Positions 10,063-38,450 of a stretch of DNA of 42,660 bases are shown here, in pieces. Position numbers and translations under genes: made by a program. The DNA comes from a virus (taxonomy: Duplodnaviria > Caudoviricetes): positions 1 through 42,660 of the IMG/VR virus record IMGVR_UViG_3300048611_000078. The stretch is one strand, 5' to 3'. Each line of letters opens with the position of its first letter. The first letter of the stretch is position 1. The notes under the pieces were generated by a model. The model saw only the letters and a list, made by a program, of their open reading frames with translations. It was not told the DNA's origin and searched no databases.

Positions 10063-10149
10063 TTTCGAGGGGGGAAGCCAGGCGACCGCGCCTGTGAACT
10101 ACGAAAATGCCCGGTGCTACTCGCGGTCGCATGGGGTGATTGGTTAAAC
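10063..10149 (-). mobile_element. attC-like site A1 (R' box degenerate)
   Basis: Minus strand: GTTTAAC-caatc-ACCCCAT-GCGACCGCG...CGCGGTCGC-CTGGCT; no GTT at the R' position. Confidence 0.65.
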
Positions 10150-10158
10150 TGGAGACTT

Positions 10159-10482
10159 ATGAAAATTGACATGATTTATGTGTGGGCTGCCGGTTTGCTG
10201 CTGGTGATGTTGTTTCAGAATTTTTTCACCGTTAAAAAGACTGATTATGACGTTTCGTACTCCTACACCACAAACGAAATGGGCTACATCGCCTACGGGC
10301 AGACAACGATTGTTTGCACCGGTAATGCCGATCTTGATTGGGCATCGCTTCGCGTCTGGCTGGTGAAGGACGTTAAAGCTCGGACTGGCGAGGATTCGGC
10401 CGTTGTGACGGTGCTTGGAACAAATAAGCGCGATAGTGACAGATATTGGCGGCCATTCTGGATGGTTATTTCTTCTGTTTAA
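10159..10482 (+). CDS. Cassette-borne membrane-anchored protein
   Basis: GGAG SD; N-terminal TM helix; stop TAA lies within the R' box of site A2. Confidence 0.7.
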   Translation: MKIDMIYVWAAGLLLVMLFQNFFTVKKTDYDVSYSYTTNEMGYIAYGQTTIVCTGNADLDWASLRVWLVKDVKARTGEDSAVVTVLGTNKRDSDRYWRPFWMVISSV

Positions 10483-10564
10483 CGCCTAAATTACCGCGAC
10501 CGCGCCACCGTTGGCTGGTGATATGGCAGGGCTACTCGCGGTCGCGCTGAATTTTTTGTTAAAC
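10477..10564 (-). mobile_element. Intact attC-like site A2 (88 bp)
   Basis: Minus strand: R'' GTTTAAC-aaaaa-L'' ATTCAGC-GCGACCGCG...CGCGGTCGC-L' GGTAAT-ttaggc-R' GTTAAAC, matching canonical attC spacing. Confidence 0.85.
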
Positions 10565-10578
10565 GACTAGGGGAAATC

Positions 10579-10782
10579 ATGAGTAACAGCAGAACGTTGG
10601 CCGCAGCAATGACAATGATGGTGGTGGGTGCAGGAGCTTTAGAAGTGCTTCAATACCAGGCGCCATACCGCGATGTTTCCGATCCGTACAGCCATAAGAG
10701 CGGCAGGAAAAGGAACAGATGGAAAAAAGACTTATTGATTAAGGGCAAACGATTAAAAAGCAAATACTGCCTGCCTCGGTGA
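10579..10782 (+). CDS. Cassette-borne small basic protein
   Basis: AGGGG SD; stop 1 nt before the R' box of site A3. Confidence 0.6.
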   Translation: MSNSRTLAAAMTMMVVGAGALEVLQYQAPYRDVSDPYSHKSGRKRNRWKKDLLIKGKRLKSKYCLPR

Positions 10783-10783
10783 C

Positions 10784-10817
10784 GTTTAACGACAGAAATA
10801 ACGGGCGGCTTTAGCCG
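10784..10817 (-). mobile_element. attC-like half-site A3 (L'-R' arm only)
   Basis: Minus strand: CGGCTAAAGCCGCCC-GTTATT-tctgtc-GTTAAAC. Confidence 0.6.
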
Positions 10818-10847
10818 GACACCACCAGCCGCCGAAAAGGAGATTGC

Positions 10848-11168
10848 TTGAGCCGCAAGAAACCAATTACCCCGAATAGCCAAATACGCTCCGCGCTCCG
10901 GCAGCTTTTTCTCCGCAGCCGCGAACGGGCGAAGTGCATAAAAGATGCGCAGGGCACATGCTCCTGTGGAAAGAAGCAGAGCAAGGCCAAGGGGCGCGAA
11001 GTGAAGATCAACGTGCATCATGTCCATGGGATAGATTGGGATGGCCTGATTGATTTGGTGCGTGAAAGGCTACTTAGTGGAGAAATGGTGGTCAAGTGTT
11101 TGGATTGCCATGACAGGGAGCACACGGAAAAGGCCGGGTCAGATTGCGGAGAACCTGACCCGGCTTGA
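10848..11168 (+). CDS. HNH-type (NinG-like) nuclease
   Basis: CSC...VHH...CLDCH..EH; AAGGAG SD, TTG start. Confidence 0.6.
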   Translation: MSRKKPITPNSQIRSALRQLFLRSRERAKCIKDAQGTCSCGKKQSKAKGREVKINVHHVHGIDWDGLIDLVRERLLSGEMVVKCLDCHDREHTEKAGSDCGEPDPA

Positions 11169-11351
11169 TTATCCAGCCAAATGCAACAGATGATCCCGCA
11201 GCAAAATAATAGCCGCCGACTGTTGCTTGGTTGGCCCCCTGGTGTTTTCAATCCTGTTTATTGCCTGCTGAGACATTCCGAGGGTAACACCAAGCTCAGC
11301 CTGGGTGAGCCGCATTTCCTTGCGGATGGCCCTGTATTCTTCCCCGGTCAT
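11169..11351 (-). CDS. XRE-family HTH protein
   Basis: RAIRKEMRLTQAELGVTLGMSQQAINRIEN. Confidence 0.8.
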   Translation of the reverse strand: MTGEEYRAIRKEMRLTQAELGVTLGMSQQAINRIENTRGPTKQQSAAIILLRDHLLHLAG

Positions 11352-11623
11352 TTTGTCACCATCGCGAACCTGGGGGTGGTCTCGCAAGACAATTTGCCGG
11401 TTGCGCGGTCCAGGCTCCGGTCAATCACGAAAAATACATCGTGCAAAAAGTCCTTATCGCTGGCATTGAGCAACCCGTCAAGATCCAGCGGGCAGCCGTT
11501 ACAGTGACAGGCCGTAATGTACATTTGCATGGCGAGGCGGTCACGGTGTGCGCATTTAAGGGCGCGGTCTGCGATGAGAGAAATCAGGGTTTGCTCCTCG
11601 GGTGTGGCATCGTACTTGATCAT
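11348..11623 (-). CDS. Conserved phage protein (DUF6874-like)
   Basis: TACHCNGCPLDLDGLL...FLHDV...LDRATGKL...PRF. Confidence 0.65.
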   Translation of the reverse strand: MIKYDATPEEQTLISLIADRALKCAHRDRLAMQMYITACHCNGCPLDLDGLLNASDKDFLHDVFFVIDRSLDRATGKLSCETTPRFAMVTK

Positions 11624-11635
11624 AGCGTAGTCCTC

Positions 11636-11818
11636 CTAGGCAACTGTCCGTAATGGTTTGATCCGGTAGGCCCCGACAATTTTACCCCTTGCGTCATACA
11701 AGTTAGGGTAGCATCCAGGGCCTGGGACCCCCTCTTTCTCCAGGCGATCCGCTAAGGCTCTGAGCGCACGGATAAGCTCCTTTGCCGTGGAAAATCTCAT
11801 GGTCATTACCAGCCGCAT
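11636..11818 (-). CDS. Hypothetical protein
   Basis: AGGAGG SD; LRALADRLE...LYDARGKIVG. Confidence 0.55.
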   Translation of the reverse strand: MRLVMTMRFSTAKELIRALRALADRLEKEGVPGPGCYPNLYDARGKIVGAYRIKPLRTVA

Positions 11819-11821
11819 GAG

Positions 11822-11932
11822 TTACCCCTCCTGTTCAAGGTCGTTGATTGCAGAAACCACGCTGGCTACGATAACCAACGCAGCGAAGAAAACAGCCGCG
11901 AAAACATAATACACGAAAAATTCGCACCACAT
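11822..11932 (-). CDS. Small membrane peptide (36 aa)
   Basis: AGGAGG SD; single TM helix. Confidence 0.5.
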   Translation of the reverse strand: MWCEFFVYYVFAAVFFAALVIVASVVSAINDLEQEG

Positions 11933-12074
11933 AGTTACCCCTCCTGATAATATTGGAGACAAAGCACCTGTGCCTTGACACCGGACAGGCAGTAAGAATC
12001 GGTTTGAAACAGGCGACCATGAAACCAGACAACGTGCAGCGAGTGCGTTCCTGTGTTGATCTGGGTTGAGAATT

Positions 12075-12242
12075 TCATGGTTTATCCTTGCCCGGTATAG
12101 GCTCCGGACTGGCCCGGCTCCCCGCCATTGCGTCAAGCTCGGCCAGGAGATCGCGGGGCAGCAAGATAGAAACCGGCACTTTCTTTTCTTTCTGTGCCAA
12201 GAGAGGTCGGCCCGCCCCCGGTCGTCTGCCGCCCTTACTCAT
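12075..12242 (-). CDS. Ribbon-helix-helix (CopG-like) DNA-binding protein
   Basis: GGRRPGAGRP...VSILLPRDLLAELD. Confidence 0.65.
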   Translation of the reverse strand: MSKGGRRPGAGRPLLAQKEKKVPVSILLPRDLLAELDAMAGSRASPEPIPGKDKP

Positions 12243-12477
12243 CTCGCAACGCCTTAAGAACAAGATTAACTGCCTGGGCTTTATTGTAATTCGCCGTTTC
12301 GTCATCTACGATCTCGTCAATCCACGCCTCATAAGCGTCTACGCTTTCAAAGGTTCTTTCGCCAGCATCTTCAAAATCGGAGTGTTCAGCGACAATTCGC
12401 ACACACTCACCATCCGTATATTTTGCGATACTCCACCCGTTCAACGCTGTTCCGAATATATATTTTTCGAATTTCAT
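12235..12477 (-). CDS. Hypothetical protein
   Basis: AAGGGGG SD, 80 aa. Confidence 0.55.
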   Translation of the reverse strand: MKFEKYIFGTALNGWSIAKYTDGECVRIVAEHSDFEDAGERTFESVDAYEAWIDEIVDDETANYNKAQAVNLVLKALRDE

Positions 12478-12491
12478 AGTCTTTCCCCCTT

Positions 12492-12809
12492 TTAAGAAAT
12501 TTGGCAGTGAGAACAAACGCCACGGCTATCAAGCATACTGTTCGGGAACCAGTCTGTGCAGACACAACAAAGCCCGCCTTCTGTCTTATTCTTTTTGCTT
12601 TGTTTCCGTGCGTTTTCGTCCATTGCTTCGCGCATGCTTTTAACAGACATCAAATTTTTATTTCCGAACATTGTCCGCCCGCCCTTAATCGCCTTTTTAA
12701 TCTTGTCGCCGCGCTCAAGCAGAATCAGCACGCTGTTGTCAAGACCGTCTATGCTTTCTATTTTTCCTATTTCAATTATTTCGTTGTTTCTTCTCTCTAC
12801 AACTTTCAT
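12492..12809 (-). CDS. Hypothetical protein (possibly two fused small genes; internal SD + ATG)
   Basis: First gene after the leftward promoter; C-terminal CCVC...CSHC. Confidence 0.5.
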   Translation of the reverse strand: MKVVERRNNEIIEIGKIESIDGLDNSVLILLERGDKIKKAIKGGRTMFGNKNLMSVKSMREAMDENARKQSKKNKTEGGLCCVCTDWFPNSMLDSRGVCSHCQIS

Positions 12810-12856
12810 TTTTCCGTCTCCCGGTTACGGCCAGCTATATGCTTGCCTTTGATTAT

Positions 12857-12955
12857 AAAATACAGCCGATGGATGTTTATGTCAAGAATAAAAATGCAAC
12901 TTGTGAAAATATTTTTAAAATATTATTTGCTAGTATGATTACACGGTGTTACAAT
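12857..12955. promoter_or_regulatory. Divergent sigma70 promoters in AT-rich intergenic region
   Basis: Leftward TTGACA-N17-TATTTT (12885-12857); rightward TTGCTA-N17-TACAAT (12927-12955). Confidence 0.65.
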
Positions 12956-12973
12956 GTTTTAAATGGAGCAATC

Positions 12974-13171
12974 ATGGGTAGAGCGTGCAAGATATGCGGG
13001 AAGAGTCTATCGCGGTACAACACCGGGACGGCCTGCTATTGTCATACGCACAACCCAGACGACCCGGAAAACATAGAACCACCTGCCGCGATATGCACCA
13101 GTCGGACATGTTATGGTTTTGAGCAAGCGTATCAAGACTACTATGGATTCGGGAGCAACAGGGGGAGATAG
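12974..13171 (+). CDS. Zinc-finger hypothetical protein
   Basis: GGAG SD; CKICGKSLSRYN...CYCH. Confidence 0.6.
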   Translation: MGRACKICGKSLSRYNTGTACYCHTHNPDDPENIEPPAAICTSRTCYGFEQAYQDYYGFGSNRGR

Positions 13172-13504
13172 ATGAAAAAGCTCGCAACATGGGTAATGCT
13201 ATTCTTCACGGTGCTGTTCGGCAGTTGTTCCACGGCGGCGGCTGGTAACTGGCGGCAGGCCAACGAAACAATCGAGCGTAGCGGCTTTGATGATGTTGTC
13301 CACGCAGGGGTAGGCCTGGGCGTATCGTATTTGGTCCACAGGTACTCAGGGCTGACCGGACGAAAAGCAGATGTGGTGGCGATACTGGCGGCAATCGCGG
13401 TTGGGACGGCCAAGGAGTTGACGGACAAGCACTTTGACGCTGGAGATGTTGCCGGTTATGGGATCGGCGCGGGGATTGGATGCGTGTTGACTTGGGAGTT
13501 TTAA
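13172..13504 (+). CDS. Membrane protein (YfiM/DUF2279-like)
   Basis: Signal-like N-terminus; HAGVG...GTAKELTD...FDAGD. Confidence 0.55.
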   Translation: MKKLATWVMLFFTVLFGSCSTAAAGNWRQANETIERSGFDDVVHAGVGLGVSYLVHRYSGLTGRKADVVAILAAIAVGTAKELTDKHFDAGDVAGYGIGAGIGCVLTWEF

Positions 13505-13505
13505 C

Positions 13506-13931
13506 ATGACCTGTATCGCATGGGACGGGAAAACACTGGCCGCAGACAAGATGTTTGTGCGTGGAGACACAATAGGGTCTGTGTTGAAAATATGGGCGTA
13601 CAGGGACGTTACGTTTGCCAGCTATGGCGATCTGTCTTTGGGAATACAGATGCGCGACCACCTTTTGAGTGATGAAAAGCCGTGGCCCAAGCCAGATGCG
13701 GAATGCTTTGCCGGGCTGGTGGTGTTGGACGGTAACGGCATCCATTTTTACGAGAGCGGGTCCAGCCCGGTGCCGATATATCCAACCGACAATATTTGCG
13801 CCTGGGGAGTTGGCAGAGAGGCGGCTCTTGGCGCAATGGAAATGGGGGCTGATGCAGTTAGGGCGGTAGAGGTAGCTAGTAAATGGGTTGGAGGATGTGG
13901 GCGCGGTGTTGACTCGATAACGGTGAGGTGA
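13506..13931 (+). CDS. Ntn-hydrolase, proteasome-beta/HslV-like protein
   Basis: N-terminal MTCIAWDGKTLAAD; AWGVG...ALGAM..GADA..AV..A. Confidence 0.7.
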   Translation: MTCIAWDGKTLAADKMFVRGDTIGSVLKIWAYRDVTFASYGDLSLGIQMRDHLLSDEKPWPKPDAECFAGLVVLDGNGIHFYESGSSPVPIYPTDNICAWGVGREAALGAMEMGADAVRAVEVASKWVGGCGRGVDSITVR

Positions 13932-14168
13932 GATATGGGCGCAATTTTCGCTATAGGTGGCTGTATTTGCATGGGGATGGCATTTGGCCCGTGGGTTGGT
14001 GCCGGGATTTTACTTTTTCTTCTTGCGGCGGCGTGGTAAGCAATGAACACGGAAACAGTTGAGTGGTGGGTACTGGTTATATCCGGCTGCATTTGTGCTG
14101 GTATGCTGCTCGGCTGGTGGTATGGTGCTGCCGCGTTGTCAATTATTTGTTGCACACAGGATTAAGAC

Positions 14169-14690
14169 ATGACGCAGCGTAAGACGAGAGCCAAGGCGCA
14201 AACCGTAAAGCCGTTGACCAAGAAGGGCAAGGAGACAAAGCGGCCAGACCTGATCGGCAATCAATTCTGGAAAGCCCGATCTTCCCATGGACGCAAGCCT
14301 ATCTTTTCTGATCCCGAACAACTCCGCAGCGCATCTCTTGAATACATCGCATGGGTAGAGAACAACCCACTACAAGAAGAAAAGGTGTTTTGTTACCAGG
14401 GTTTTATCACTCGCGCAAACGTAAGCAAGCTCCGCGCTATGACTATTAACGGGTTGTGTCTGTTCCTGGACATTGACCAGATGACGTGGGCAGAGTACCG
14501 CAAGCGTGATGGTTTTACTGGTGTCACACGCGAGATAGAGGCTGCAATCTATGAGCAGAAGTTCTCTGGGGCCGCAGCAGAAATGCTTAACGCGAACATT
14601 ATTGCCCGCGAGTTGGGCTTGGCCGATAAGAAGGAGCTTTCTGGCGGGGTTACGCTGAAATTTGGGGCAGATGACGAGGGGTGCTTGTAA
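14169..14690 (+). CDS. terS: Terminase small subunit (P22 gp3-like)
   Basis: GNQFWKARSSHGRKPIF...RAMTINGLCLFL...QKFSGAAA.MLNANIIARELGL. Confidence 0.9.
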   Translation: MTQRKTRAKAQTVKPLTKKGKETKRPDLIGNQFWKARSSHGRKPIFSDPEQLRSASLEYIAWVENNPLQEEKVFCYQGFITRANVSKLRAMTINGLCLFLDIDQMTWAEYRKRDGFTGVTREIEAAIYEQKFSGAAAEMLNANIIARELGLADKKELSGGVTLKFGADDEGCL

Positions 14691-14814
14691 GTTTGCTCCA
14701 TTCCGTTCTTTCTGTGCGTTAGGCGGCATTTTTAGGTATTTCGGAAAAACAACAAGTTAAGTTTTATAGGTGCCGCGAAATGCCGCAATTATACTTCGAG
14801 TCAATCCTAACAAT

Positions 14815-16143: not shown

Positions 16144-16207
16144 TGGAACCAAAGCAAGAGAACGACAAGAAATTCGTTGACGAGCACATAAGGATTGCAT
16201 TTTCTTC

Positions 16208-16236
16208 TTGCTTTTTCGGTGAAATTCGTATAAAAT
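16208..16236 (+). promoter_or_regulatory. Putative promoter upstream of portal
   Basis: TTGCTT-N17-TAAAAT. Confidence 0.55.
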
Positions 16237-16353: not shown

Positions 16354-16369
16354 GCGTTTAAGGAGCAGC

Positions 16370-18433
16370 GTGGACGGATCGACGATAGAAAACCTGCTTA
16401 GATTTGCCAAGATGGACAATGTGTCCCCTGAGATTAAAGATGAGAATCTCATCAAGATCGGGCGCGATGTTGTCCGCCTGTACAAGATAGACGAAGATAG
16501 CCGCGAAGACTGGAAGAAGCGGTCCCAAGATGCGATGGCCCTTGCGCTGCAAGTTACAAAGAAGAAAGATTTCCCCTTTGAGAACGCCTCACAAGTTAAA
16601 TATCCCCTCCTCACCACCTCCGCACTTCAATTCCATGCCAGATGCTACCCGGCAGTAATCCAGGGCGATAAGGTAATAAAGTTCCGCGTTACCGGCGAAG
16701 ACCCTGAAGGCGAGAAGAGCAAGCGGGCCGTGCGGTGCGCTCAGTTCATGAATTGGCAGCTACTGTTCCAACAGGAAGAATGGGAAGAGCAGTTCGACCG
16801 GCTCCTGCTGGCCCTGCCTATCGAGGGGTGCGAGTTCAAAAAATCGTTTTATGATCCCACCCTTGGCCGAAATGTATCTGAGTGGATCAGGCCGGATGAC
16901 TTTGTAGTCCACAACAAGACAAAGAGCTTGGCCGTTTGCCCCAGGATGACCCACAGGCTGTATTTCTACCCGCACGAGATAGAGGTGCGGCAATCGTCTG
17001 GGTTATGGGTTGACGTAAACCTGGAAATCAGTAAAACGGACGAAGATGAAGAGACTCAGCAATGCTTCCTTGAGCAACACTGCTTGTTGGACCTTGACGA
17101 GGATGGGGTCAAAGAGCCGTGGTGCGTGACCGTCCACGAGCAATCGCAGAAGGTTGTGAGGATCAAGGCCGGGTTCTACCCCGAGGATATCTGGATCAAT
17201 CTGGACGAAATGAAACGGCTTGGAGATATTGACGCATCTGTCCCTGCTGAAGCGGTTTTCGGTGCCCAGGTTGTTAAGATTGACCGCATTCAGTATTTCA
17301 CCAAGTATTCGTTCATCCCCTCGCCCGATGGAGGCTTTTATGATGTTGGGTTCGGCCAGCTTATCGGGCCGCTGTCAGACACCATTGATACCACGATAAA
17401 CCAAATCATCGACGCGGGCACGTTGGCTAATACTCAGGGCGGATTTGTCCGTGAGGGGGTTAGTGTCGGTGGCGGGCGTGGCTCAATCCGGTTTGCCATG
17501 GGCGAGTTTAAGCAGATTCGCATCCCCTCGGCCATGCCTATAAGTCAAGCGATGCAGCCAATGATTTTCCCTGGCCCGTCCGCCGTTCTATTTCAGATGT
17601 TGGAAATGCTGATTCAATCAGTCCGCGATATTACCGGGGTGCAAGACATTAACGTAGGCGCAACCCCGCAGAACGAGACCGCCACCACCACCATGATTCG
17701 GGTGGAAGAGGGAGCGAAGGTTTTTACCGCAATTTACAAGCGCATCTGGCGGGCGATGAAGGAAGAGTTTGCGAAGCTGTACAAGCTGAACAGTATTTAT
17801 TTGCAGCCGGAAACGTATTTTACGGTTCTTGATTCCAACGAACAAGGGGTTGTGTCTCTCCAAGACTTCAGGGGAGAATCTACCGACATACAGCCCGTTG
17901 CAGACCCGACCATCGCGACCACTCAACAGAGAATCGCAAAGGCCGAGTTGTTGATGGGGCAAATGGGTAACCCGCTCACCAACAAAGAGGAAATCACTCG
18001 CCGCTACTTGGAGGCCGCAGAGATTAGTGGCGTTGACAAGGTAATTATCCCGGAAGATCAGCGGCAAGTCCCGCCCGATCCAAAGATAGAGCTTGCCGCC
18101 ATGAAACAACGCGACGAGGCAAGAGAGTCAGAGGCGCGGGTGCTAAACCTGTACGCCAAGACGCTTGAGGCGTTTGCAAATGCGGAATCAAAGGAAGTAG
18201 GGAGCCAGCTTGATCAGTACAGGCTGGAGCTTGAAGCATTAAGAACCCAGATAGAGGCAGGCGATGCTAACAAAGGAAGAGTTGCAGGAATGGAAGGCGC
18301 ACCCGACGACCAAGGCGGTGTTCCACCGGCTGAAGAGTTACCAGCAGGTATTGACGCAGGAATGCTTGGAGGCGGGGAACCTGGACAAGGACCAGGCATG
18401 GCGATTGGTGGTGGAGAACAAGGCGAAGTTTGA
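16370..18433 (+). CDS. Portal protein (P22-like podovirus)
   Basis: ~690 aa after TerL; FPFENASQVKYPLL, FYDVGFG, ATTT motifs; C-terminal coil; AAGGAG then GTG 16370. Confidence 0.85.
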   Translation: MDGSTIENLLRFAKMDNVSPEIKDENLIKIGRDVVRLYKIDEDSREDWKKRSQDAMALALQVTKKKDFPFENASQVKYPLLTTSALQFHARCYPAVIQGDKVIKFRVTGEDPEGEKSKRAVRCAQFMNWQLLFQQEEWEEQFDRLLLALPIEGCEFKKSFYDPTLGRNVSEWIRPDDFVVHNKTKSLAVCPRMTHRLYFYPHEIEVRQSSGLWVDVNLEISKTDEDEETQQCFLEQHCLLDLDEDGVKEPWCVTVHEQSQKVVRIKAGFYPEDIWINLDEMKRLGDIDASVPAEAVFGAQVVKIDRIQYFTKYSFIPSPDGGFYDVGFGQLIGPLSDTIDTTINQIIDAGTLANTQGGFVREGVSVGGGRGSIRFAMGEFKQIRIPSAMPISQAMQPMIFPGPSAVLFQMLEMLIQSVRDITGVQDINVGATPQNETATTTMIRVEEGAKVFTAIYKRIWRAMKEEFAKLYKLNSIYLQPETYFTVLDSNEQGVVSLQDFRGESTDIQPVADPTIATTQQRIAKAELLMGQMGNPLTNKEEITRRYLEAAEISGVDKVIIPEDQRQVPPDPKIELAAMKQRDEARESEARVLNLYAKTLEAFANAESKEVGSQLDQYRLELEALRTQIEAGDANKGRVAGMEGAPDDQGGVPPAEELPAGIDAGMLGGGEPGQGPGMAIGGGEQGEV

Positions 18434-18476
18434 CGTGGTTCAGGATATTTTCGACACGGAGGCAGACAATGAATAA
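18264..18476 (+). CDS. Small head-module protein overlapping the portal 3' end
   Basis: GAGG SD; MLTKEELQEWKAHPTTK; overlaps GroES start. Confidence 0.6.
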   Translation: MLTKEELQEWKAHPTTKAVFHRLKSYQQVLTQECLEAGNLDKDQAWRLVVENKAKFDVVQDIFDTEADNE

Positions 18477-18780
18477 AAGCGGCATCAAGCCTATGGAGTA
18501 CAAAATCCTCGTTGAGCCTGTGAAGGTTGAGGAAAAGACAGCGGGCGGTATTTATCTCCCCGACCAGGTGAAGGACAAGAACAAGTTTGCCAATGATGAG
18601 GGCACTATTATTGCGGTTGGCCCTATTGCATTCACCGACCCGCACTGGCTGGAATGCCCGAAGGTTGGCGACAAGGTAATGTTTGATCGGTACGCAGGCA
18701 TTCTCGTTAAAGGAAAAGACGAGAATGAATACCGGATCATCAACGACAAGGAAATTTGTGCAATATTGGAGGAAGTATGA
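18469..18780 (+). CDS. groES: Co-chaperonin GroES (Cpn10)
   Basis: IKPMEYKILV...EEKTAGGIYLP...GTIIAVGP...KVGDKVMF..YAG...YRII.DKEI.AI. Confidence 0.92.
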   Translation: MNKSGIKPMEYKILVEPVKVEEKTAGGIYLPDQVKDKNKFANDEGTIIAVGPIAFTDPHWLECPKVGDKVMFDRYAGILVKGKDENEYRIINDKEICAILEEV

Positions 18781-20623: not shown

Positions 20624-22371
20624 ATGGTTATGTCAACTGGTACCCACCCTTAAATCTTAGGGGCCTTGTGGGGTAATCCACAAGTAAACTGTGCGTGAAT
20701 TGCTGGGATATCTCTATGAGACAATCAGCAGCCAAGCCAAAAAGAGAAAATAAATGTTTTCAGTGTACGAAATAAAGAATCAAACTAACGGGAAGAAATA
20801 TATCGGCATTACTTCTCGCACGATTGCAGAACGATTTGAAGAACACAAATCGCGAGCAAAGTGTGGGCAAAGAGGAAGCCGGTTATATGACGCAATGCGA
20901 AAGTATGGCGTTGATAATTTCTGTGTAAAGTTGGTTCTTGCGGTTGAATCCGAGGATGATGTTAGAGAGATGGAAACTTTCTATATCACCAAGGAAGATT
21001 CGTACACAAACGGGTATAATTGCAATTACGGAGGCCATGGATTCTTAAAAGTCCCTGACCATGTCCGGGTAAAAATTGGCAATGCAAATCGTGGACGGGT
21101 TATGTCTCTCGATGCACGCAAGAAAATGTCTCAAGCAAAAAAAGGAGATAGTTCTTGTTCTGCCAATTTCGGTGATTATGTCGGCAAGGGGGCCAAAAGT
21201 CCTCTTTCTAAGGCGTATTTAATCCAGTTTCCAGACGGCCACACGGAAACAGTTGTTGGGCTTAGAGCGTTTTGCCGGGAGCATAAAATCGCTGGTTGCA
21301 AATTATACACCAGAGGAAAGACAAAAGGATTTCTCTTGCTGGAAGGTCCAACGACTATCCCTTCGGGGAGTACGCTCAAGTGAGCGGAAGCGCGCACCTA
21401 CCCACGCGGTAGAAGATATAGTCTGATCTCATGGGCGACTATGAGCTGCCGAAAGGCGGGCTAAGATTAACGATCTTAGCTGAACATAAATGAAAGATTT
21501 ATGGCCGGGAATTAAGGCCCACTTTGGACATACTTACGACGAGCACGCAGAGGAGTTTTCTCAGATTTTCGACGTGCAGACCTCCGACAAGAACTTTGAA
21601 GAGCGTATTCAGTACAAGGGCCTCGGCCTCGCCCCTGTGAAAGCGCAAGGGGCATCTATCTCTTTTGAGGACACTCAGCAGGGCTATATCAGCCGGATTA
21701 ACAACATTACCTACGCTATCGGCGGTATTGTGACCCGTGAAGCAATCGAGGATGGGCAGTACGAAAGCACGGCCACTCGGCTTTCTGGCCATATCGCTTT
21801 CTCTATCCGGCAGACGGAAGAGAACGTGTGCGCTAACATCCTGAACCGCTTCACCACTTCCGGGTATAACGGCGGGGATGGGGTTGTACTTGGCTCCACC
21901 GCGCACCCGGAGGCCACCGGCAATCAGAGCAACATCCTTTCCGTGGCTGCTGATCTTTCTGAGGCATCCCTTGAGGACATGCTGATTCAGACTATGAATG
22001 CCACTGACTCCAAGGGGCTGAAAATCTCCCTTATCGGTAAGAAACTGATTGTTCCCCCGGCCTTGGCCTTTGAGGCAACCCGCATTGTTAAAAGCCAGCT
22101 CCAGAGCAACACGGCCAACAACGATATTAACGCCCTGAAAGCAATGGGCATGCTGCCTGATGGTATCGTTACCTGCCATTACCTGACTGACACCGATGCA
22201 TGGTTTGTGAAGACCAACGCAGTTGAAGGCCTAATCAAGCAGGATCGCCGGTCTGTAGAGTTCGCCAAGGACAACGATTTTGACACCGAAAACGCCAAGA
22301 TGAAAGGCTCAATCCGGTTCGGTGCTGGTTGGGCAGATTGGCGCGGCGTGTTCGGCTCTGCTGGCGCATGA
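20624..22371 (+). CDS. Major capsid protein, spliced: exon 1 20624-20650 + exon 2 21493-22371 (301 aa)
   Basis: GAGGTG SD; spliced N-terminus MVMSTGTHP|KDLWPGIKA; GGDGV.L.S.AHP, LIVPPAL, YLTDTDAWF, DFDTEN, DWRG motifs. Confidence 0.88.
20651..21492 (+). mobile_element. Group I intron (IA2-like, 842 nt) in the capsid gene
   Basis: P1 CCCU|UAA..UUAGGGG with U-G at the splice site; P GAAUUGCUGGGA; Q AAUCAGCAGCC; R CAACGACUA; S AAGAUAUAGUCU; terminal G; P10 complementarity. Confidence 0.92.
20754..21383 (+). CDS. Intron-encoded GIY-YIG homing endonuclease
   Basis: VYEIKN...KKYIGIT...RF..H...E...GYN; NUMOD3-like RKKMSQAKKG. Confidence 0.9.
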   Translation: MFSVYEIKNQTNGKKYIGITSRTIAERFEEHKSRAKCGQRGSRLYDAMRKYGVDNFCVKLVLAVESEDDVREMETFYITKEDSYTNGYNCNYGGHGFLKVPDHVRVKIGNANRGRVMSLDARKKMSQAKKGDSSCSANFGDYVGKGAKSPLSKAYLIQFPDGHTETVVGLRAFCREHKIAGCKLYTRGKTKGFLLLEGPTTIPSGSTLK

Positions 22372-27676: not shown

Positions 27677-28736
27677 ATCTATACCGCCGCCACTACAGCA
27701 GTCTTTCGTTGACGCAAGGGGTAATGTTTCTCGGCCCTGGCTTGACTGGCTGTACAATGTCTATTTGGGGGGGGAGCAGCAGGAAATAACGGCTTTAGAC
27801 GACCAAGCACAGGACAGTGGAGCATCCGCCGTTGGCTTTCTGGCTGATCTTATTTCGAGCATTCACTTTGATACGAGCCTTGCCAGGGAAGAGGCGGCCC
27901 AGGAATTACCAAGTGACCCAGTTTTCAGGGAAGAGGCGGCCCAGGAATTACCAAGTGACCCAGTTTTTTCGCAAGAAGACAGGAACGAAGAACAGACACA
28001 GGCTCTCCTGGGCCGCATAGAGGCTCTTGAGGCCCAGGCGGCACAACGGTTAAATTGGGTTGATTTGCCCCTCAACCTTCAGAATTTTATTGTTGAAATA
28101 ACAGGAATAACCGTACTGCCAAAGGCGTCTGGGATAGGAATAAAAGTAGACGTTGTTTCTCCGACATTCGGTTTCCGCGATTTGCTCGGCGAAATAAAAA
28201 TACTTTCACCTGGAGCGAATGACCCAACCCTAGCTGTTTTCCGGGACAGCATACGGGCGTTTTCGTTCAGCAACGCCGTAATGAATGAAGCTAATTTTCA
28301 CTATCATATTCCGCACGATTATGTGCCAGGAAGCGACATTTTCTTGCATTTCCACTGGAGCCAAAACGTTGTTGATAGCGGCGGGCCAGCCGGTGTCCCA
28401 GGTGATGTGAAGTGGCAAGCGGAATGCAGTTACGCAAAAGGACACGATCAAGCAGCCTTCCCTGCGACATTTACCACCAGCACGACACAAACCGCCAGTG
28501 GTACACAATACCAGCACATGCTTACAGAGGTTCAGTTGTCGGCAGCAAGCCCGTCTGCCACGGAAATTGATTCTGACATATTGGAGCCAGATGGGCTGAT
28601 TATACTGAGGGCCTTCCGAGACCCGACAGACGTAGCGGACACACTGGACCAAGTTCCGTTTTTACACCAAGTAGACATTCATTATGAATCGACAAACATT
28701 GCCACCAAGGCAAAGGCCCCTGACTTTTATACCTAA
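27648..28736 (+). CDS. Tail-associated protein
   Basis: PPP...D.RG.VSRPW N-terminus typical of the gene after gp10; internal 14-aa duplication. Confidence 0.6.
   Translation: MLMVKPLAFKSIPPPLQQSFVDARGNVSRPWLDWLYNVYLGGEQQEITALDDQAQDSGASAVGFLADLISSIHFDTSLAREEAAQELPSDPVFREEAAQELPSDPVFSQEDRNEEQTQALLGRIEALEAQAAQRLNWVDLPLNLQNFIVEITGITVLPKASGIGIKVDVVSPTFGFRDLLGEIKILSPGANDPTLAVFRDSIRAFSFSNAVMNEANFHYHIPHDYVPGSDIFLHFHWSQNVVDSGGPAGVPGDVKWQAECSYAKGHDQAAFPATFTTSTTQTASGTQYQHMLTEVQLSAASPSATEIDSDILEPDGLIILRAFRDPTDVADTLDQVPFLHQVDIHYESTNIATKAKAPDFYT
27884..27967 (+). repeat. Perfect 42-bp tandem duplication (REEAAQELPSDPVF x2)
   Basis: 27884-27925 identical to 27926-27967. Confidence 0.95.
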
Positions 28737-29098: not shown

Positions 29099-29569
29099 AT
29101 GAAGATTGTGCCTATCGAGCATAAGCATTATGCGGAATTATTTCGCGTCACCTCCATATGCGAACCGTGGTGGGGACTAGATAGAAATACCAGCGATAGG
29201 CTTTTTTCAAAAAGGGAAGGATTTGTACTTATTGCAGAATCTGGATCAGACGAGGGGAAGGTGGTTGGGCATATAACACTGTCTGACTACACTGTAAAAC
29301 TTGATGTTTTTATTCATTGCTCAATATTGCCTGAATACCAAAGAAGATGGCTTAACAAGACCATATATCGAACAGTTTTCGATTATGTTTTCAATGTTCT
29401 TGAGTGTGTAAGGGCAACCGGGTGGGCAACAGAGGGGCTTAATGACCTTACCTTCCATGAACGATTGGGGTTTAAGAGAGAAGGAGTTCACCGGCAGAAT
29501 TTACGAATAAAAGACAAATATTACGACATGCACTATTTTGGGATGCTCAAAAATGAACGCCGCTGGTAG
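29099..29569 (+). CDS. GNAT-fold acetyltransferase-like protein (P22 gp14 position)
   Basis: FDYVFNVL...ERLGFKREG..R...FGML..E. Confidence 0.75.
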   Translation: MKIVPIEHKHYAELFRVTSICEPWWGLDRNTSDRLFSKREGFVLIAESGSDEGKVVGHITLSDYTVKLDVFIHCSILPEYQRRWLNKTIYRTVFDYVFNVLECVRATGWATEGLNDLTFHERLGFKREGVHRQNLRIKDKYYDMHYFGMLKNERRW

Positions 29570-30590
29570 AATTTTATTTGTTATATACGCTGCCCCAATA
29601 GCGTATAGTCACGGAGTTGCGGTGTTGTCTAGTATTTTAAAAAAAGCAGGATTTCATACTGATATTTTTATAGCGAACGGGAACCTTGAATTATTCAAAA
29701 CAATTATTTCTGAAAATTGGGCTGCTATTTGTTTTTCTAACTGTATAAAAAAAGATTTTGATCTTAGTATTAAATATATTGATGCGGCTATAGAGTCTGG
29801 GCATGAGACAATACTTGGTGGTACATACCACAGAAGAAACAACCCTAATAAATATGACGGGGTATTGAAAATTTGTCGAGGAGACGGTGAAACATTAACA
29901 GATTATTTCATTGGTGGAAATGCAGCCGTTTTTGACAAAAGGTTAGTTCAACAGGACTTAGACTGTTTGCCAATGGCAGACTATGAAATATTTAAAAATA
30001 TCCCATTTGACGGACATATAAAAGACTTTCCAGAAATGAAAAAATTACCGTACACCGTTTCTCGTGGTTGCATCGGTAAGTGCAAGTTTTGCGAAGTGCA
30101 ACACCAAGAAGGGGGAGTTAGAATACGCAGAAGCTCGGTAGATGATATTAAATACTTAACAAACAGATACAACCCCGATCTTTTGTTTTTCACAGATGAG
30201 CTTTTCCCATATTACGACCAAAGATATATGGAAGATTTTTTGCCCTCAATAAAAAAACCATATTTTGCTTTTATTAGGGCAGACATTAAGGCCGACATGC
30301 TAAAAAACATGATTTCGTCGGGAATGATTGGTTGTGCATTTGGTGTGGAATGCGGGGATGAGAAGTACAGGAACGATATTTTGTGCAAGGGGATTACCGA
30401 TGAAGAAGTACACAGAACGGCAGGTATATTAAAAAGTAACGGAACGTATTTTGCCCACTTTTATATGATAAATATGGAAGGCGAAAGTTTTATGATGAAG
30501 AAAAAAACTGACGATATGGCCATGTCTTTAGGTGGCACACCGATGGTTTTTGACTATACAGCAGTAAAATATCAAACGAGAGGTTGCTAA
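29553..30590 (+). CDS. Radical SAM protein, B12-binding (class B)-like
   Basis: ILGG.Y, RGDGE, LD.LP, SRGCIGKCKFC (CxxxCxxC), FTDE, FGVECG; AT-rich. Confidence 0.85.
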   Translation: MNAAGRILFVIYAAPIAYSHGVAVLSSILKKAGFHTDIFIANGNLELFKTIISENWAAICFSNCIKKDFDLSIKYIDAAIESGHETILGGTYHRRNNPNKYDGVLKICRGDGETLTDYFIGGNAAVFDKRLVQQDLDCLPMADYEIFKNIPFDGHIKDFPEMKKLPYTVSRGCIGKCKFCEVQHQEGGVRIRRSSVDDIKYLTNRYNPDLLFFTDELFPYYDQRYMEDFLPSIKKPYFAFIRADIKADMLKNMISSGMIGCAFGVECGDEKYRNDILCKGITDEEVHRTAGILKSNGTYFAHFYMINMEGESFMMKKKTDDMAMSLGGTPMVFDYTAVKYQTRGC

Positions 30591-30591
30591 C

Positions 30592-33956: not shown

Positions 33957-36151
33957 AAAGACTTTTAACACTGTGGGCGTTAATTCTACTCTACGCCATT
34001 CCAGCCCAAGCCGGATCGTATATCACCAACCCGAAGTTTACCCTGCTGGATGATAACGGGGAGCTTGCTTCCGGGGCCTGCGTTTATTTTTACGAGCCAG
34101 GGACCACCACTAAGAAGACAGTCTACACCGATGTTAGCCAGTCTGTTGCAGCCTCAAACCCGATTACCCTTGATTCACGGGGAGAATATGCCGTTTTCGG
34201 GACCGGATCATATAAAATCGTTGCCAACGCAGCGGCCTCACCCTGCCCCACCACTCCAGACGATGTAATCTGGTCCGCTGATAATGTGTTTCCGAACGGC
34301 AATTATATAGCTGGTGACACATCAACCGTTGCGACGATTGCAGAACTAAGGGGAGTGACGGGAACGGCTGGATCATCCGCTATTCCGCTCGGGTGGTATG
34401 CCGTTGGTGATGGCGGCGGCGGGCCTCTTCGCACCTGGGATACCGCTTCGACTTGCACCGACAACGGGGGTAATTGTGTAAAACCGACCGTGATTGGTGT
34501 AGGAGACCCTGGCCGGTGGGTATGGGATCATGTTGGCCCGGTAAGCCCCCGCTGGTTTGGTGCAAAATGTGACGGGACAACCGATGATGGCGCGATAATC
34601 AATACTGCTCTGGCGCATAAAGAGGGCGCACAGGTTTGGATTGAGGAAGAAGCTTGCGCTACATCTGTTACCATTGAAGGCCCGTCCGGAAGCGAACTGA
34701 AAGGAATTGGCGGTGGTCAGTACCCAACACCTGCAAATTATGCTAGCGCAAACTTCATCGCAACACCGAAATCTCGCATTGTCGCCCTAGCTGGTTTTAC
34801 AGCTGGTGCACCTGTTATTCGGGTAAAGACCCCAGATGCTGCTGCATACACAAAAGAAAGCGTCTCTGTGAAAGGGCTGATGATAGACTGCGCTGGTATC
34901 GCTGACTATGGTATAGATGTTATTTCAGTTAAACGATCTAAGTTTAAAAATCTGCTGGTGTATCGACCTCTTTTAGTGGGCATTCGTGAGAATGTCCTCT
35001 CGGGTGCAGCAGAAACAACTGAGGGGAATAATGCAACTCAGTTTAATGTTTGGGAAAGTGTAACAGTTTGGGCAGCTTATAGCGCAGACAGCACTACTAC
35101 CATAGGTTGGCAACAGATTGGAACCGAGTTGCATGATTGTAACGAAAGCACATACACAAACATTGTTATAGTTACTATTCATGGTGATGCTCTCCAGGTA
35201 CAGGGTGGTGGAAATAATACCTGGATAGGCATGTACACTTATACTTATGGTAAGGGAGTTGCAGTACGGTTATATGGTCGGGATGTTGCAACAGGGGCGA
35301 GTGTCGCCAAAAACAATACATTTATCAAACCGGACTTAGGGGGGGCTTCACATACAGGAACGGCACAGGCCGGAGGTGCAAGCACAATAACGCTTGCTGC
35401 TACAGCAAGCACGGATGATTTACAGTACGAAGGGAGAAACATAAAAATTACGGGTACTGGAACAGGCGCAGGGCAGCTAAGGAATATTTCAAGTTATGAT
35501 GGAGCAACTAAAGTTGCTACCGTTAGTGAGGCTTGGACTACTCAACCAGACAATACCTCTACGTATACAGTTTATACAGGTGGAGTAGTTGCAGAATCTG
35601 GCACGAATACTTCATCATTTGATAACATCATGTATAGTTACATCGGCGCGAATGGTGCAAGTGAGCCGATTATAGAAAGTGGAGTGAGGTTTACTTACAT
35701 TATGGCGGGTAACCCGTCTTATGGCTGGCGACGTTTTACACCTGCAGTTACTTTTGTAACTCCTGGTGATTTATCTGTCACCTATGCCTATGCAGAAGGT
35801 CGGTATTGGAGAACTGGCCATACAATAAATTTTATTATTAACATAACTTTTACCCCAACATTTACCACTGCTTCGGGGTCTATACTCATAACTGGATTAC
35901 CCTATCTTGCCAAGAATGATTATAGTGGTGCACCAGGAGTTTATGCGGCTTCTGTTCATTATTCAAATGATGCCTGGAGTTGGGGAACCGGCAAAACTCA
36001 AATATCAGCTAGGGTTTTGCCAGGTGCGGATAGTGTTCGGCTTGTAGGTATGGGAAATGGTGTAAATGACGCTTATATAACGGAAGCTGAAATGCCTAGT
36101 GGGACAGAGAAAATAATACATATATCCGGAGAATACGAGGCTGGATCGTAA
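33953..36151 (+). CDS. Tailspike / receptor-binding protein with beta-helix
   Basis: GACVYFYEPGT...NPITLDSRG particle-binding domain; GDGGG; WFGAKCDG beta-helix start; signal-peptide-like first 20 aa. Confidence 0.8.
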   Translation: MKRLLTLWALILLYAIPAQAGSYITNPKFTLLDDNGELASGACVYFYEPGTTTKKTVYTDVSQSVAASNPITLDSRGEYAVFGTGSYKIVANAAASPCPTTPDDVIWSADNVFPNGNYIAGDTSTVATIAELRGVTGTAGSSAIPLGWYAVGDGGGGPLRTWDTASTCTDNGGNCVKPTVIGVGDPGRWVWDHVGPVSPRWFGAKCDGTTDDGAIINTALAHKEGAQVWIEEEACATSVTIEGPSGSELKGIGGGQYPTPANYASANFIATPKSRIVALAGFTAGAPVIRVKTPDAAAYTKESVSVKGLMIDCAGIADYGIDVISVKRSKFKNLLVYRPLLVGIRENVLSGAAETTEGNNATQFNVWESVTVWAAYSADSTTTIGWQQIGTELHDCNESTYTNIVIVTIHGDALQVQGGGNNTWIGMYTYTYGKGVAVRLYGRDVATGASVAKNNTFIKPDLGGASHTGTAQAGGASTITLAATASTDDLQYEGRNIKITGTGTGAGQLRNISSYDGATKVATVSEAWTTQPDNTSTYTVYTGGVVAESGTNTSSFDNIMYSYIGANGASEPIIESGVRFTYIMAGNPSYGWRRFTPAVTFVTPGDLSVTYAYAEGRYWRTGHTINFIINITFTPTFTTASGSILITGLPYLAKNDYSGAPGVYAASVHYSNDAWSWGTGKTQISARVLPGADSVRLVGMGNGVNDAYITEAEMPSGTEKIIHISGEYEAGS

Positions 36152-36153
36152 TC

Positions 36154-36399
36154 ATGGGACCACAATCATTCGCAGACCTGGGTTGGTGGGCATTGGGCGG
36201 GGCTATCTTTGTAAGCGTCTCAGCCTGTGCCCTACTTTTGAAACTCCTTCTAGCCAAACTAAAGGAGATTTGCAAGCTGTTGAGCGACTTCCAGAAAATA
36301 ATGAGCAAGCACGACAAGGCCATCGTGGAACTCCAGACACGATGCGCGATGAACCACAGGGCACCCCTTGCAAACAAGATTCAAGGGGATGAAGAATGA
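36154..36399 (+). CDS. Putative holin / single-TM lysis protein
   Basis: One TM helix plus coil; at the start of the lysis block. Confidence 0.45.
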   Translation: MGPQSFADLGWWALGGAIFVSVSACALLLKLLLAKLKEICKLLSDFQKIMSKHDKAIVELQTRCAMNHRAPLANKIQGDEE

Positions 36400-36773
36400 C
36401 CGTTCTTTTTGCGCCGCCTGATTATTGGATGCTCACCAAAGACCAACGCGCCGACATTTCTAATGGTTGCGGGACCAGGGGGCTTCTTGGTCTTTTGGTC
36501 CCGGATACGGTATATTTTCTATCAATAAAAAGTGCTTGCGATATACACGATTTCATGTACGCTATTGGTATAAACATTAAAGACAAGCAGGAAGCAGACC
36601 GGGTTTTCCTTAACAACATGATGCGCATCATAGACCATGAAACAAGATGGGACTGGCTAAAGGTTTTAAGGTTGCGCCGGGCGAAAACCTACTATCAAGC
36701 CGTGAAGAATTTTGGAGGGTTGGCATTTTGGAGTGGAAAAAACGCACCAGAGAACAAGGGAGGATACGCATGA
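36396..36773 (+). CDS. DUF1353-like / phospholipase A2-like protein
   Basis: NGCG...ACDIHDFMY...ADRVFL...YYQAVKNFG. Confidence 0.65.
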   Translation: MTVLFAPPDYWMLTKDQRADISNGCGTRGLLGLLVPDTVYFLSIKSACDIHDFMYAIGINIKDKQEADRVFLNNMMRIIDHETRWDWLKVLRLRRAKTYYQAVKNFGGLAFWSGKNAPENKGGYA

Positions 36774-36967
36774 ACCAGCTTACCATCGACCACGACAAGT
36801 GCAACAGATGCGGGGCGTGTGAATTCACCCTGAAAAACCTCCACGAGAAGGCCATAGACGGTCGCTTGTTTGTTTCCGACACAAACCTACGAAAGCATGC
36901 AACAGAGATCACCACGGCTATCGTATCGTGCAAGAATGATGCGCTATACCTTTCGCTGGCACTGTAA
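36770..36967 (+). CDS. Ferredoxin-like single-cluster Fe-S protein
   Basis: IDHDKCNRCGAC...AIVSCKNDAL; GGAGG SD. Confidence 0.6.
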   Translation: MNQLTIDHDKCNRCGACEFTLKNLHEKAIDGRLFVSDTNLRKHATEITTAIVSCKNDALYLSLAL

Positions 36968-37356
36968 TGGCTACCAGCAAGGACCAGGCCGCTTTTCTCC
37001 TGGACGTGTGCAAGCTGATCCAATTCGCAACTTCCCTCGGCTGGCGAGTAACTGAGGGGGAATTCAAGCGAACCCCAGAACAGCAGAAAATCTACTTTGA
37101 CAAGGGCCTGTCAAAAACCCTGAACAGCAGACACCTTGTCGGCATGGCCGCAGACCTCAACTTCATTCGTGAATCTGACGGGCTGTATATCGGGGCGCTG
37201 AAAACCAGGGCGGCGCTCGGGATGCTCCGCCCTGTTGGCGAATTCTGGGAGTCGCTTTCACCGCTTAACAGGTGGGGCGGGAACTTTGACCGGGATTGGT
37301 CAAGAGACGATAGCTTTCATGATGCACCTCATTTTGAGCGTTTTGATTCAAGATGA
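36967..37356 (+). CDS. Endolysin, M15 L-Ala-D-Glu peptidase family
   Basis: RTPEQQ, SRHLVGMAAD, RWGGNF, DAPHFE. Confidence 0.88.
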   Translation: MATSKDQAAFLLDVCKLIQFATSLGWRVTEGEFKRTPEQQKIYFDKGLSKTLNSRHLVGMAADLNFIRESDGLYIGALKTRAALGMLRPVGEFWESLSPLNRWGGNFDRDWSRDDSFHDAPHFERFDSR

Positions 37357-37429
37357 GCAGTAAAGCCTACCGGCAAAAGCACCAGGAGCAGGGCCATTTT
37401 AGGACCACTCGCAATAACCAAGGACATTA

Positions 37430-37518
37430 TAAATACAAGGCACTTCACCGGAAGCCGGGAAGCTGGGCGTTTTTATCTGGTCATTCATTGGCGGCTCCGG
37501 TGAGTTGCCTGGTTATAA
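37430..37518 (+). mobile_element. attC-like site B1 (R'' AAC changed to TAC)
   Basis: TAAATAC-aaggc-ACTTCAC-CGGAAGCCG...CGGCTCCG-GTGAGT-tgcctg-GTTATAA; two extrahelical bases at canonical positions. Confidence 0.8.
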
Positions 37519-38196
37519 TGCCTGTGCCAGCACGTGGTTTCCGAGCCGCGAGTCAACACAATTCCTCAAAACTTGTCGCTTGTTCGGTATCCTGTATATA
37601 TCGAGCGACAACCCCAGTTCGTTTTCCCAATCACTTATTTTGTTCTTGTCCCTAATCCCTGCCGCTGGTAGTTTAATGTCAGGTATATCAAAGTTTGCCC
37701 AAAAATAATGTCTCGCTACTTTTTGCGGATTCACCAGCGGCTCGTAATAACTGATTGTGTTTTCTACAACCCACTTCCCTTCATGGTGGTACTGCAAAAA
37801 TATAATTTCCTCGTACAAAGCCATATCCGGGAAAACTCCCTTGTAGCCCTTTGCCCTCACACCCACGTTATAGCGATACTGCCCATGCGTAGGACACGGC
37901 GGTGATGTCCATATCAGGTCAAACTCTGCATAGTGTTCAAGCAGGTAAGCGTGTGCATCTCCAACAACAACAATATCATCGGGGAATCTATCTTGATAGG
38001 CTCTTGCAATTTCAGGCTCTCGCTCTACCGCAGTTACTTTTACATTGCCAGGCCACAACGCCCTATTGCCGCCAATTCCAGCATATAGGTTAAGCGCATT
38101 ATAACAAGGCGCTACACCTGAAAACATGGGGCTGGCGTTCTCGGGTTGTGCGGCGTTCGGTGTTTCCGGTGTTTCAATCATGTCCATTTTCCCCAT
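37513..38196 (-). CDS. DNA (cytosine-5) methyltransferase, cassette-borne
   Basis: NLYAGIGG (motif I), WTSPPC (IV), VVEN (VI); stop in the R' box of B1; start inside B2. Confidence 0.85.
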   Translation of the reverse strand: MGKMDMIETPETPNAAQPENASPMFSGVAPCYNALNLYAGIGGNRALWPGNVKVTAVEREPEIARAYQDRFPDDIVVVGDAHAYLLEHYAEFDLIWTSPPCPTHGQYRYNVGVRAKGYKGVFPDMALYEEIIFLQYHHEGKWVVENTISYYEPLVNPQKVARHYFWANFDIPDIKLPAAGIRDKNKISDWENELGLSLDIYRIPNKRQVLRNCVDSRLGNHVLAQAL

Positions 38197-38222
38197 GTTT
38201 CAGGTGACCAGCAACGTTAGCT
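38099..38222 (+). mobile_element. Intact attC-like site B2 (124 bp)
   Basis: TTATAAC-aaggc-GCTACAC-CTGAAAACATGGGG...CCCCATGTTTCAG-GTGACC-agcaac-GTTAGCT. Confidence 0.85.
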
Positions 38223-38450
38223 ATCAAATCCAAAAAGGATTGCTTCGTTAAATTCAACCATTTCATCAAAAGTTTTAACCAGCTTGCCGTTTGAAAGCAA
38301 AAACATTATCGGCATTAGCACAACCCACGAAAGAGGGATAATCCACCACCCCAAAAGACAAAATCGAATGCAAAAAAAGAAACAGCTAACCATGCGTTCA
38401 AGAATCGACGCGCGAATCTCCGGGTTTGTTTGTCGTGGTCTGCAAGTCAT
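38217..38450 (-). CDS. Cassette-borne small membrane protein
   Basis: GAGGAG SD; hydrophobic core; stop TAA in the R' box of B2. Confidence 0.65.
   Translation of the reverse strand: MTCRPRQTNPEIRASILERMVSCFFFCIRFCLLGWWIIPLSWVVLMPIMFLLSNGKLVKTFDEMVEFNEAILFGFDS
38384..38420 (+). mobile_element. attC-like half-site B3 (R''-L'' arm only)
   Basis: AGCTAAC-catgc-GTTCAAG; R'' is the exact complement of GTTAGCT at 38216. Confidence 0.7.

Follow-up and report, generated by a model that had tools for sequence, protein, structure and literature searches.

The virus record IMGVR_UViG_3300048611_000078 (42,660 nucleotides; this whole stretch is referred to here as the window) is covered here in its full length and is rated 91% complete; two short arrays of integron-type attC recombination sites and gene cassettes lie in its early region. 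Early genes run rightward from about 41.4 kb across the record ends to 11.2 kb and leftward from 41.2 kb to 37.5 kb. Array A comprises sites A1, A2 and A3 on the minus strand, and array B comprises B1, B2 and B3 on the plus strand, so the two arrays point in opposite directions in the genome, as a first-pass annotation had noted. Two of the six sites are intact (A2 and B2), two are damaged (A1 and B1), and two are relic half-sites (A3 and B3). Both A1 with A2 and B1 with B2 are neighboring attC sites in a genome without an integron integrase, the minimum (two sites or more) for a cluster of attC sites lacking an integrase (CALIN). The feature is a real element of CALIN type, partly eroded, with cassettes of phage polarity and no integrase of its own. 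Coordinates are collected in Table 1.

Table 1. The two arrays and associated features of the window. Scores are in bits, from covariance model R1 (22 sites) and from the model of 48 phage sites; ORF, open reading frame.
Feature	Position	Strand	R1	48-site model	Description
A1	10063..10149	-	29.6	38.6	R'', L'' and stem intact; R' absent (no GTT)
A2	10477..10564	-	59.8	64.3	intact attC, 88 bp
A3	10784..~10816	-			relic 3' half of a short attC (R', spacer, L', partial stem); fused to backbone
B1	37430..37518	+	28.9	46.0	7/7 L pairs; R' intact; R'' triplet broken
B2	38099..38222	+	25.6	34.2	intact attC, 124 bp; contains the methylase start
B3	38384..~38460	+			degenerate relic; R'', spacer and L'' recognizable, remainder eroded; hardly folds
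Cassette ORF, 107 aa	10159..10482	+			unknown function; antisense; stop TAA in A2 R' complement
Cassette ORF, 67 aa	10579..10782	+			unknown function; antisense; stop 1 nt before A3 R' box
Cassette ORF, 227 aa	37513..38196	-			C5-cytosine DNA methyltransferase-like; antisense; stop TAA in B1 R' complement
Cassette ORF, 77 aa	38217..38450	-			hydrophobic; antisense; starts inside B3; stop TAA in B2 R' complement
Array B lead-in	38460..39094	-			paralog of rightward early-arm segment; includes 84% inverted copy of 9509-9702
Backbone ORF, 106 aa	10848..11168	+			conserved, Cys/His-rich; directly downstream of array A; anchor in relatives
Single-strand annealing protein	2468..3169	+			phrog_3290, E 7e-50
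NinB-like gene	4177-4629				phrog_72, E 7e-11

Sites A2 and B2 have the full R''-5-L''(8)...L'(7)-6-R' geometry, with six of seven L pairs formed once base 4 of L'', the extra base in both, is dropped. A geometry pattern with strict cut-offs (L>=6, inner stem>=7) was passed by A2 alone in the window and by nothing in 20 simulated genomes; B2 passed only at a loose setting. The canonical geometry that the first-pass annotation attributed to all six sites thus holds fully for A2 and B2, in part for A1 (no R') and B1 (broken R''), and not for A3 and B3. Two home-made covariance models were also run. Model R1 was trained on 22 attC sites from bacterial arrays and one prophage integron, and the second model on 48 phage sites that include no site of the window; an A2-derived pattern had supplied the training sites, which biases both models toward the A2 family. 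Both models found A1, A2, B1 and B2 on the strands assigned to them, the next matches scoring 12.3 and 12.2 bits, respectively, and both missed A3 and B3, which are rejected as full attC sites by the models and by folding alike.

Folding was assessed with our own approximation of pfold. The recombinogenic fold has a probability of 0.046 for A2, 0.25 for B2 and 0.046 for B1, compared with 0.08-0.72 for five bacterial attC sites, and it fails for A1 (2e-5) and B3 (<= 5e-5). The bottom strand of A2 folds at z -3.9. The 48 phage sites covary in an alignment that was fitted to the model: 89.6% of cells are paired, as compared to 69.6% when shuffled and 28-37% when slid, and covariation is seen in 15 of 19 pairs. 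Related sites exist elsewhere. A1 has kin at 74-76% identity in the arrays of loci L090 and L096, which bear an integron integrase (IntI), and in L106; in sequencing run X3, a loose end at position 10074 represents an A1 variant whose R' is intact. B1 has kin at 76% in L088, and an intact counterpart of the A3 half is found as a 58-bp attC in L085 (1610-1667), with kin in L159.

The cassettes carry junction footprints of the IntI type. In all four, the starting GTT heptamer is the exact complement of the cassette's own R'', against a background of 43 such partners, 150-700 nt away, for the 662 GTTR heptamers of the window. All four ORFs lie on the attC bottom strand, antisense to the site, rather than in the canonical co-orientation. 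Three of the four stop codons are the TAA within the complement of R', and the fourth stands 1 nt ahead of the R' box. These three regularities had been claimed from inspection of the DNA, and each was confirmed on recount. In this layout, the attC precedes its own gene and can supply the start, whereas the crossover triplet supplies the stop codon. The methylase ORF is an example: it begins inside the loop of B2 and is translated across L'' and R''. Taken together, the sequence features support the view that the sites are genuinely of attC type, with IntI-type junctions and inverted gene polarity.

Homologs of the 107-aa cassette ORF are 56-71% identical. Homologs at 39-64% in five loci examined, representing four distinct sequences (L154-L159), have no attC on either side, so the family has plain phage members as well as cassette members. 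The methylase matches phrog_363 (E 2.5e-10) and PF00145 (E 2e-4, slightly short of the cut-off). Among the 22 of 120 listed proteins that were viewed, its nearest homologs (73-85%) have unrelated N-terminal extensions that all end at one point, and most of the more distant ones begin near the catalytic motif. At 58 distant methylase loci (41-55%), R1 gave no match apart from one partial on the 30-nt scale, a weak negative given the bias of the model toward its family. The 67-aa ORF has no match in PHROG or Pfam, no relatives of the 77-aa ORF turned up among viral contigs, and no GenBank phage matched array A. Sigma-70 scans listed no promoter at A3 or B1, their total counts being at shuffle level.

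To compare gene polarity, we tabulated ORF direction relative to attC in phage and bacterial loci. The A2-derived pattern yielded 9 viral loci and 16 genome loci, 8 of the latter titled as deltaproteobacterial or Desulfo- taxa; from 123 R1 hits, three opposite-strand duplicates and one partial were removed. Among viral cassettes, 21 of 27 have exact R'/R'' complements; among bacterial ones, 27 of 32 do. ORFs ending at a site are sense, antisense and unclear in 49, 7 and 10 cases in bacterial loci (n=66), in 7, 21 and 9 cases in viral loci other than the window (n=37), and in 3, 6 and 2 cases in phage-like contigs of metagenome-assembled genomes (n=11). Judging polarity by the longest ORF of each cassette suffers from noise where phage genes are short, leaving 14 of 27 viral cassettes unclear, and purine-strand and Shine-Dalgarno tests were therefore added. 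The purine-strand test is correct for 14 of 15 known window genes and miscalls the T-rich 77-aa gene. By this test, 28 of 32 bacterial cassettes are in the attC sense, whereas viral cassettes are so in 6 of 25 cases and phage-like ones in 2 of 8 (Fisher p 1.6e-6 for bacterial against viral, on loci that are not independent). In this tabulation of orientation, which the first-pass annotation had proposed, inverted gene polarity is phage-typical.

The sedentary chromosomal integrons of deltaproteobacterial genomes in this set, Hydrosulfovibrio ferrireducens among them (L095, L133, L142), share with the window the attC family, the geometry and the R'/R'' footprint. They differ in having co-oriented genes and an intI gene, whereas the window has neither intI nor a phage attI-like core and its genes are inverted. 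Exceptions occur on both sides. The phage arrays of L084, L092 and L106 include sense cassettes. In L133 (6416-6895), a bacterial integron with otherwise mostly sense cassettes contains a 91-aa gene in antisense together with an attC of the phage family. Cassette exchange between phage arrays and bacterial integrons thus appears to run both ways. In L129 (5770-7296), a long ORF stands next to an attC in the opposite direction; by eye, this could be a group II intron.

No integrase is among the PHROG assignments of the 78 window ORFs, and PF00589 (tyrosine recombinase) has no match in the window or in four relatives, two of which are rated 100% complete, whereas 14 of 14 control genomes were positive. 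The absence of a tyrosine recombinase ORF noted earlier is thus upheld. Other phages do encode an integrase. At L090, L096 and L100, the gene that closes an array of the same attC family scores about 400 bits on TIGR02249. Six phage IntIs fall together on one side of a 100/100 branch that separates them from 22 other IntIs (41-57% identity), a grouping that is partly by construction because three of the six were recruited by similarity to that of L090. A conserved attI-like core immediately precedes the IntI gene in four of six IntI-bearing phage loci. There, intI and attI stand in the usual relation to attC polarity, which means that only the genes are reversed. The gene adjoining phage intI is the terminase large subunit in all three cases tested; the phage IntI clade and its attI-like core of L121 (5900-7000), L122, L096 and L100 lie directly upstream of the terminase gene where this was tested. 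The complete inverted phage integrons L090/L121, L122, L096 and L100 resemble the window in their attC family and in antisense cargo of phage type with many methylases. They retain attI and intI, whereas the window, a podovirus-like genome without intI or an attI-like core, holds grafted, partly eroded fragments only.

Of 121 genomes from the order to which Hydrosulfovibrio belongs (Desulfobulbales), the likely host order, 71 have an IntI above cut-off. The first-pass annotation had envisaged that the phage uses a host IntI to gain or shuffle genes from a phage-adapted cassette pool. Such a pool exists, and inverted cassettes of the same family occur in viral loci. A host source of IntI is plausible given how common the gene is in the likely host order, but it is not the only source, as other phages encode their own.

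Four IMG/VR contigs (G001-G004) share the 106-aa backbone gene downstream of A3 at 93-96% identity. In G002, G003 and G004, identity with the window begins at the A3 G|TT, each time with a different upstream gene, so that the gene abutting this point differs in three of the four close relatives; G001 has a different half-site. The cassettes of the relatives have end complements of 8-10 nt. The A2 core (10480-10561) recurs at 95-96% identity with other flanks in three loci, G003 (L080), L087 and L089, and divergence at 10480/10481 is seen in at least five contigs of runs X3 and X4 among the loose ends listed. Gene-content breaks in relatives, predicted earlier to fall at the crossover points, do so precisely at the A3 and A2 G|TT. 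In L087 (40-127) and L089 (40-127), an A2-type site and cassette start directly follow the stops of two different genes, a YqaJ-like gene and a DnaB helicase gene; these junctions are either secondary-site insertions or contig-end assembly artefacts. In G003 (L080, ~7730-7860) and G004 (L062, ~3490-3620), the array opens with a truncated attC behind a promoter-like stretch that contains a repeated short motif, which suggests a dedicated array promoter at the far end.

The outer ends of the arrays look different. They are fusions within attC arms, and only two cassettes keep their own intact attC. In A1, attC-derived sequence stops at about 10080 and is fused there to phage backbone; G003 tracks the window to 10080, within the L' box of A1, and then runs into a plain gene. 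A3 corresponds to the 3' half of the L085 attC and then passes into backbone. B3 is fused to backbone near 38460, a point inside B3 at which identity with G003 resumes, and the left end of B1 is likely fused to backbone near 37438. In runs X2, X4 and X8, 37438 is joined to 39249 without block B, which is also absent from G002-G004. Run X1, the possible source of the record, spans block B and its lead-in with overlapping contigs of similar depth. We infer micro-homology recombination as the way in which both arrays entered this genome, and the annealing protein and the NinB-like product are candidates for making such grafts. As grafted and partly immobilized fragments, the arrays retain only two cassettes that still possess an intact attC. 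A 194-nt inverted paralogous pair (9509-9702 and 38901-39094, 84%) opens both cassette-bearing arms and could permit inversion of the intervening 29 kb.

These observations lead us to the view, which we consider probable, that the window holds two fragments of a phage-type array in which genes run backwards to attC, with inner junctions likely made by IntI in trans. The enzyme would be supplied by the host or by an IntI-encoding phage, and its chemistry would be ordinary, acting on the bottom strand of attC with crossover at G|TT. Only the gene would be inverted, likely being read from phage early promoters entering at the far end rather than from the cassette promoter (Pc) beside attI, and such read-through would select for reversed genes. 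The fragments were likely grafted at micro-homologies inside attC arms, leaving A1, A3, B1 and B3 damaged. The cassettes owning A2 (the 67-aa gene) and B2 (the methylase) are the only ones predicted to be still excisable. Incoming cassettes likely use the A3 half-site as a double-stranded acceptor.

Several observations weigh against this account. A3, whose acceptor role is conjectural, cannot fold as attC. Neither the window nor G001-G004 contains the attI-like core seen in IntI-bearing phages, the training bias of R1 favors the A2 family, and phage TJE1 carries its array in the normal orientation, which shows that not every phage array is inverted. The polarity counts draw on non-independent loci. 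The host assignment is indirect: the capsid protein matched none of 301 genomes of the likely host order, and DNA matches are confined to pentapeptide repeats and one 174-nt stretch of the helicase gene. The circular cassette junctions for which the first-pass annotation had proposed a search did not turn up: in contigs of the five runs X1-X4 and X8, none of the G|TT points showed a joint from excision or circle formation, although contigs drop rare forms and cannot show absence. No RNA run was listed as carrying the phage. Finally, the G|TT breakpoints could also stem from homologous exchange within attC halves.

This last point bears on the main rival explanation, which we regard as unlikely, namely, that IntI never acts on this phage lineage. 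The attC relics would be real and the genes inverted, as in the preferred account, but the cassettes would have been assembled in IntI-encoding phages or hosts, and array segments would have been traded by homologous or micro-homologous recombination with attC serving as homology islands. The outer fusions at A1 (10080), A3 (~10816), B1 (~37438) and B3 (~38460), none at G|TT, fit such trading, as do the absence of block B from G002-G004 and its opening with a paralogous early-arm segment, the annealing and NinB genes encoded by the phage, and the availability of intact donors of the A3 half in L085 and L159. The G|TT breakpoints cannot separate the two explanations. However, one 30-bp half-site, with damage that is shared and must therefore be older than the turnover, is bordered by four different genes, which means that homologous recombination would need four donors, each with the same short attC. 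In addition, the bottom strands of A2 and B2 stay foldable, at probabilities near those of bacterial sites.

It is very improbable that the enzyme instead works on the opposite strand, such that the genes are normally oriented for it and merely the bulge looks reversed. Top-strand events could account for the joining of the same attC core to varied genes at the R'' end as well (A2 in L080, L087 and L089; the methylase N-termini), and phage IntIs are just 41-57% identical to host IntIs. Yet the phage attI-like core between intI and the first cassette has normal polarity relative to the bulge, the entry heptamer of the first cassette in IntI-bearing phages complements its own R'', and sites of phage PH101 recombine better as bottom strands (PMC9892861). 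We find it hardest to credit that the hairpins have no tie to integrons and instead act as terminators or RNA processing signals, or are chance repeats. Two of the six named sites do fail both models, and A1 folds on par with shuffles (z -0.5). Nevertheless, a model trained on bacterial attC sites matches the other four, a single-base bulge is conserved, long-range R'/R'' complements and G|TT breakpoints are present, and the family is linked to IntI; moreover, Rfam has no match for the sites, and terminator scans list none of them.

Phage CALINs have precedents. Qi et al. 2023 (PMC9892861) describe 17 of them, with IntI1 activity for five sites; active sites are shown for TJE1, PH101 and P12002L. 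Like the window, these are attC clusters without intI and with methylase cargo. The accessible text of that paper treats the sites as sporadic and carries no remark on ORF-versus-attC inversion, which its figures may display. Unlike the published account, the present case combines systematic inversion with polymorphism at G|TT between close relatives and with a linked clade of phage IntIs. Antisense genes are visible in two published phage CALINs (KR534323, 75919-77987; MW202573, 2069-2703): PH101 has four attC matches on the plus strand and annotated genes on the minus strand, with one interval also holding a broken plus-strand frame, and MW202573 has attC on the minus strand and genes on the plus strand. 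R1 found no match in three of the five published CALIN phages searched, which marks a limit of its sensitivity. We found no description of inverted phage cassettes in the literature, most subscription journals being outside the coverage. What is new here is that the outer ends of the two arrays are grafts inside attC arms, that a gene family occurs both plain and as a cassette, and that a phage-form cassette sits reversed in a bacterial integron. For A3, a possible model is attG: IntI can insert cassettes at double-stranded GWT sites belonging to neither the attI nor the attC type (bioRxiv 10.1101/2022.09.11.507474), which by analogy might explain how an unfoldable half-site accepts cassettes. 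A3, if it is an acceptor, differs from attG in being an attC-derived half-site that is repeatedly reused rather than a random genomic GWT.

Integron cassettes are usually viewed as bacterial, with genes positioned for reading from Pc. The origin of cassettes is a long-standing open question. We tentatively propose, as a possibility only, that phages run a mirror-image integron system of their own that acts as a factory for new cassettes, in which ordinary phage genes become bracketed by reversed attC sites, with a hairpin start and a crossover stop. A phage-specific IntI clade and host IntIs would then shuffle these cassettes among phages, including those without IntI, with two-way flow to and from bacterial integrons. 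If the reversed phage pool is real, IntI would also serve the turnover of phage accessory genes (here a methylase, likely anti-restriction), and phage and host would exchange cassettes that only one of the two expresses. Promoterless cassettes are expressed from Pc (PMC8946536). The bottom strand of attC recombines at higher rates when it is the template of the lagging strand, and the orientation in the window predicts high cassette mobility if the coding strand is that template (PMC5371416). The locus also provides test pairs for cassette origin, namely, one family as plain gene and cassette and one attC core with different genes.

The remainder of the genome is podovirus-like. PHROG assignments include terminase, portal, capsid, ejection proteins and endolysin, together with the annealing protein, NinB, a primase and a helicase. 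The 106-aa backbone ORF has no match in PHROG or Pfam. GC skew tracks the coding strand and has no power to locate the replication origin. A pentapeptide-repeat gene spans the record ends (1-248 and 42349-42660); the genome is probably circular, its repeat having collapsed where the ends meet. A perfect 42-nt tandem duplication lies within a structural gene (27884-27967). The virion module contains GroES-like, acetyltransferase and radical-SAM-like genes (18430-18780, 29099-29569 and 29538-30590), and the 29-30 kb region is AT-rich (39% GC). Homing-endonuclease-like genes are found before the capsid gene (GIY-YIG, 20754-21383) and at 39731-40330 (HNH).

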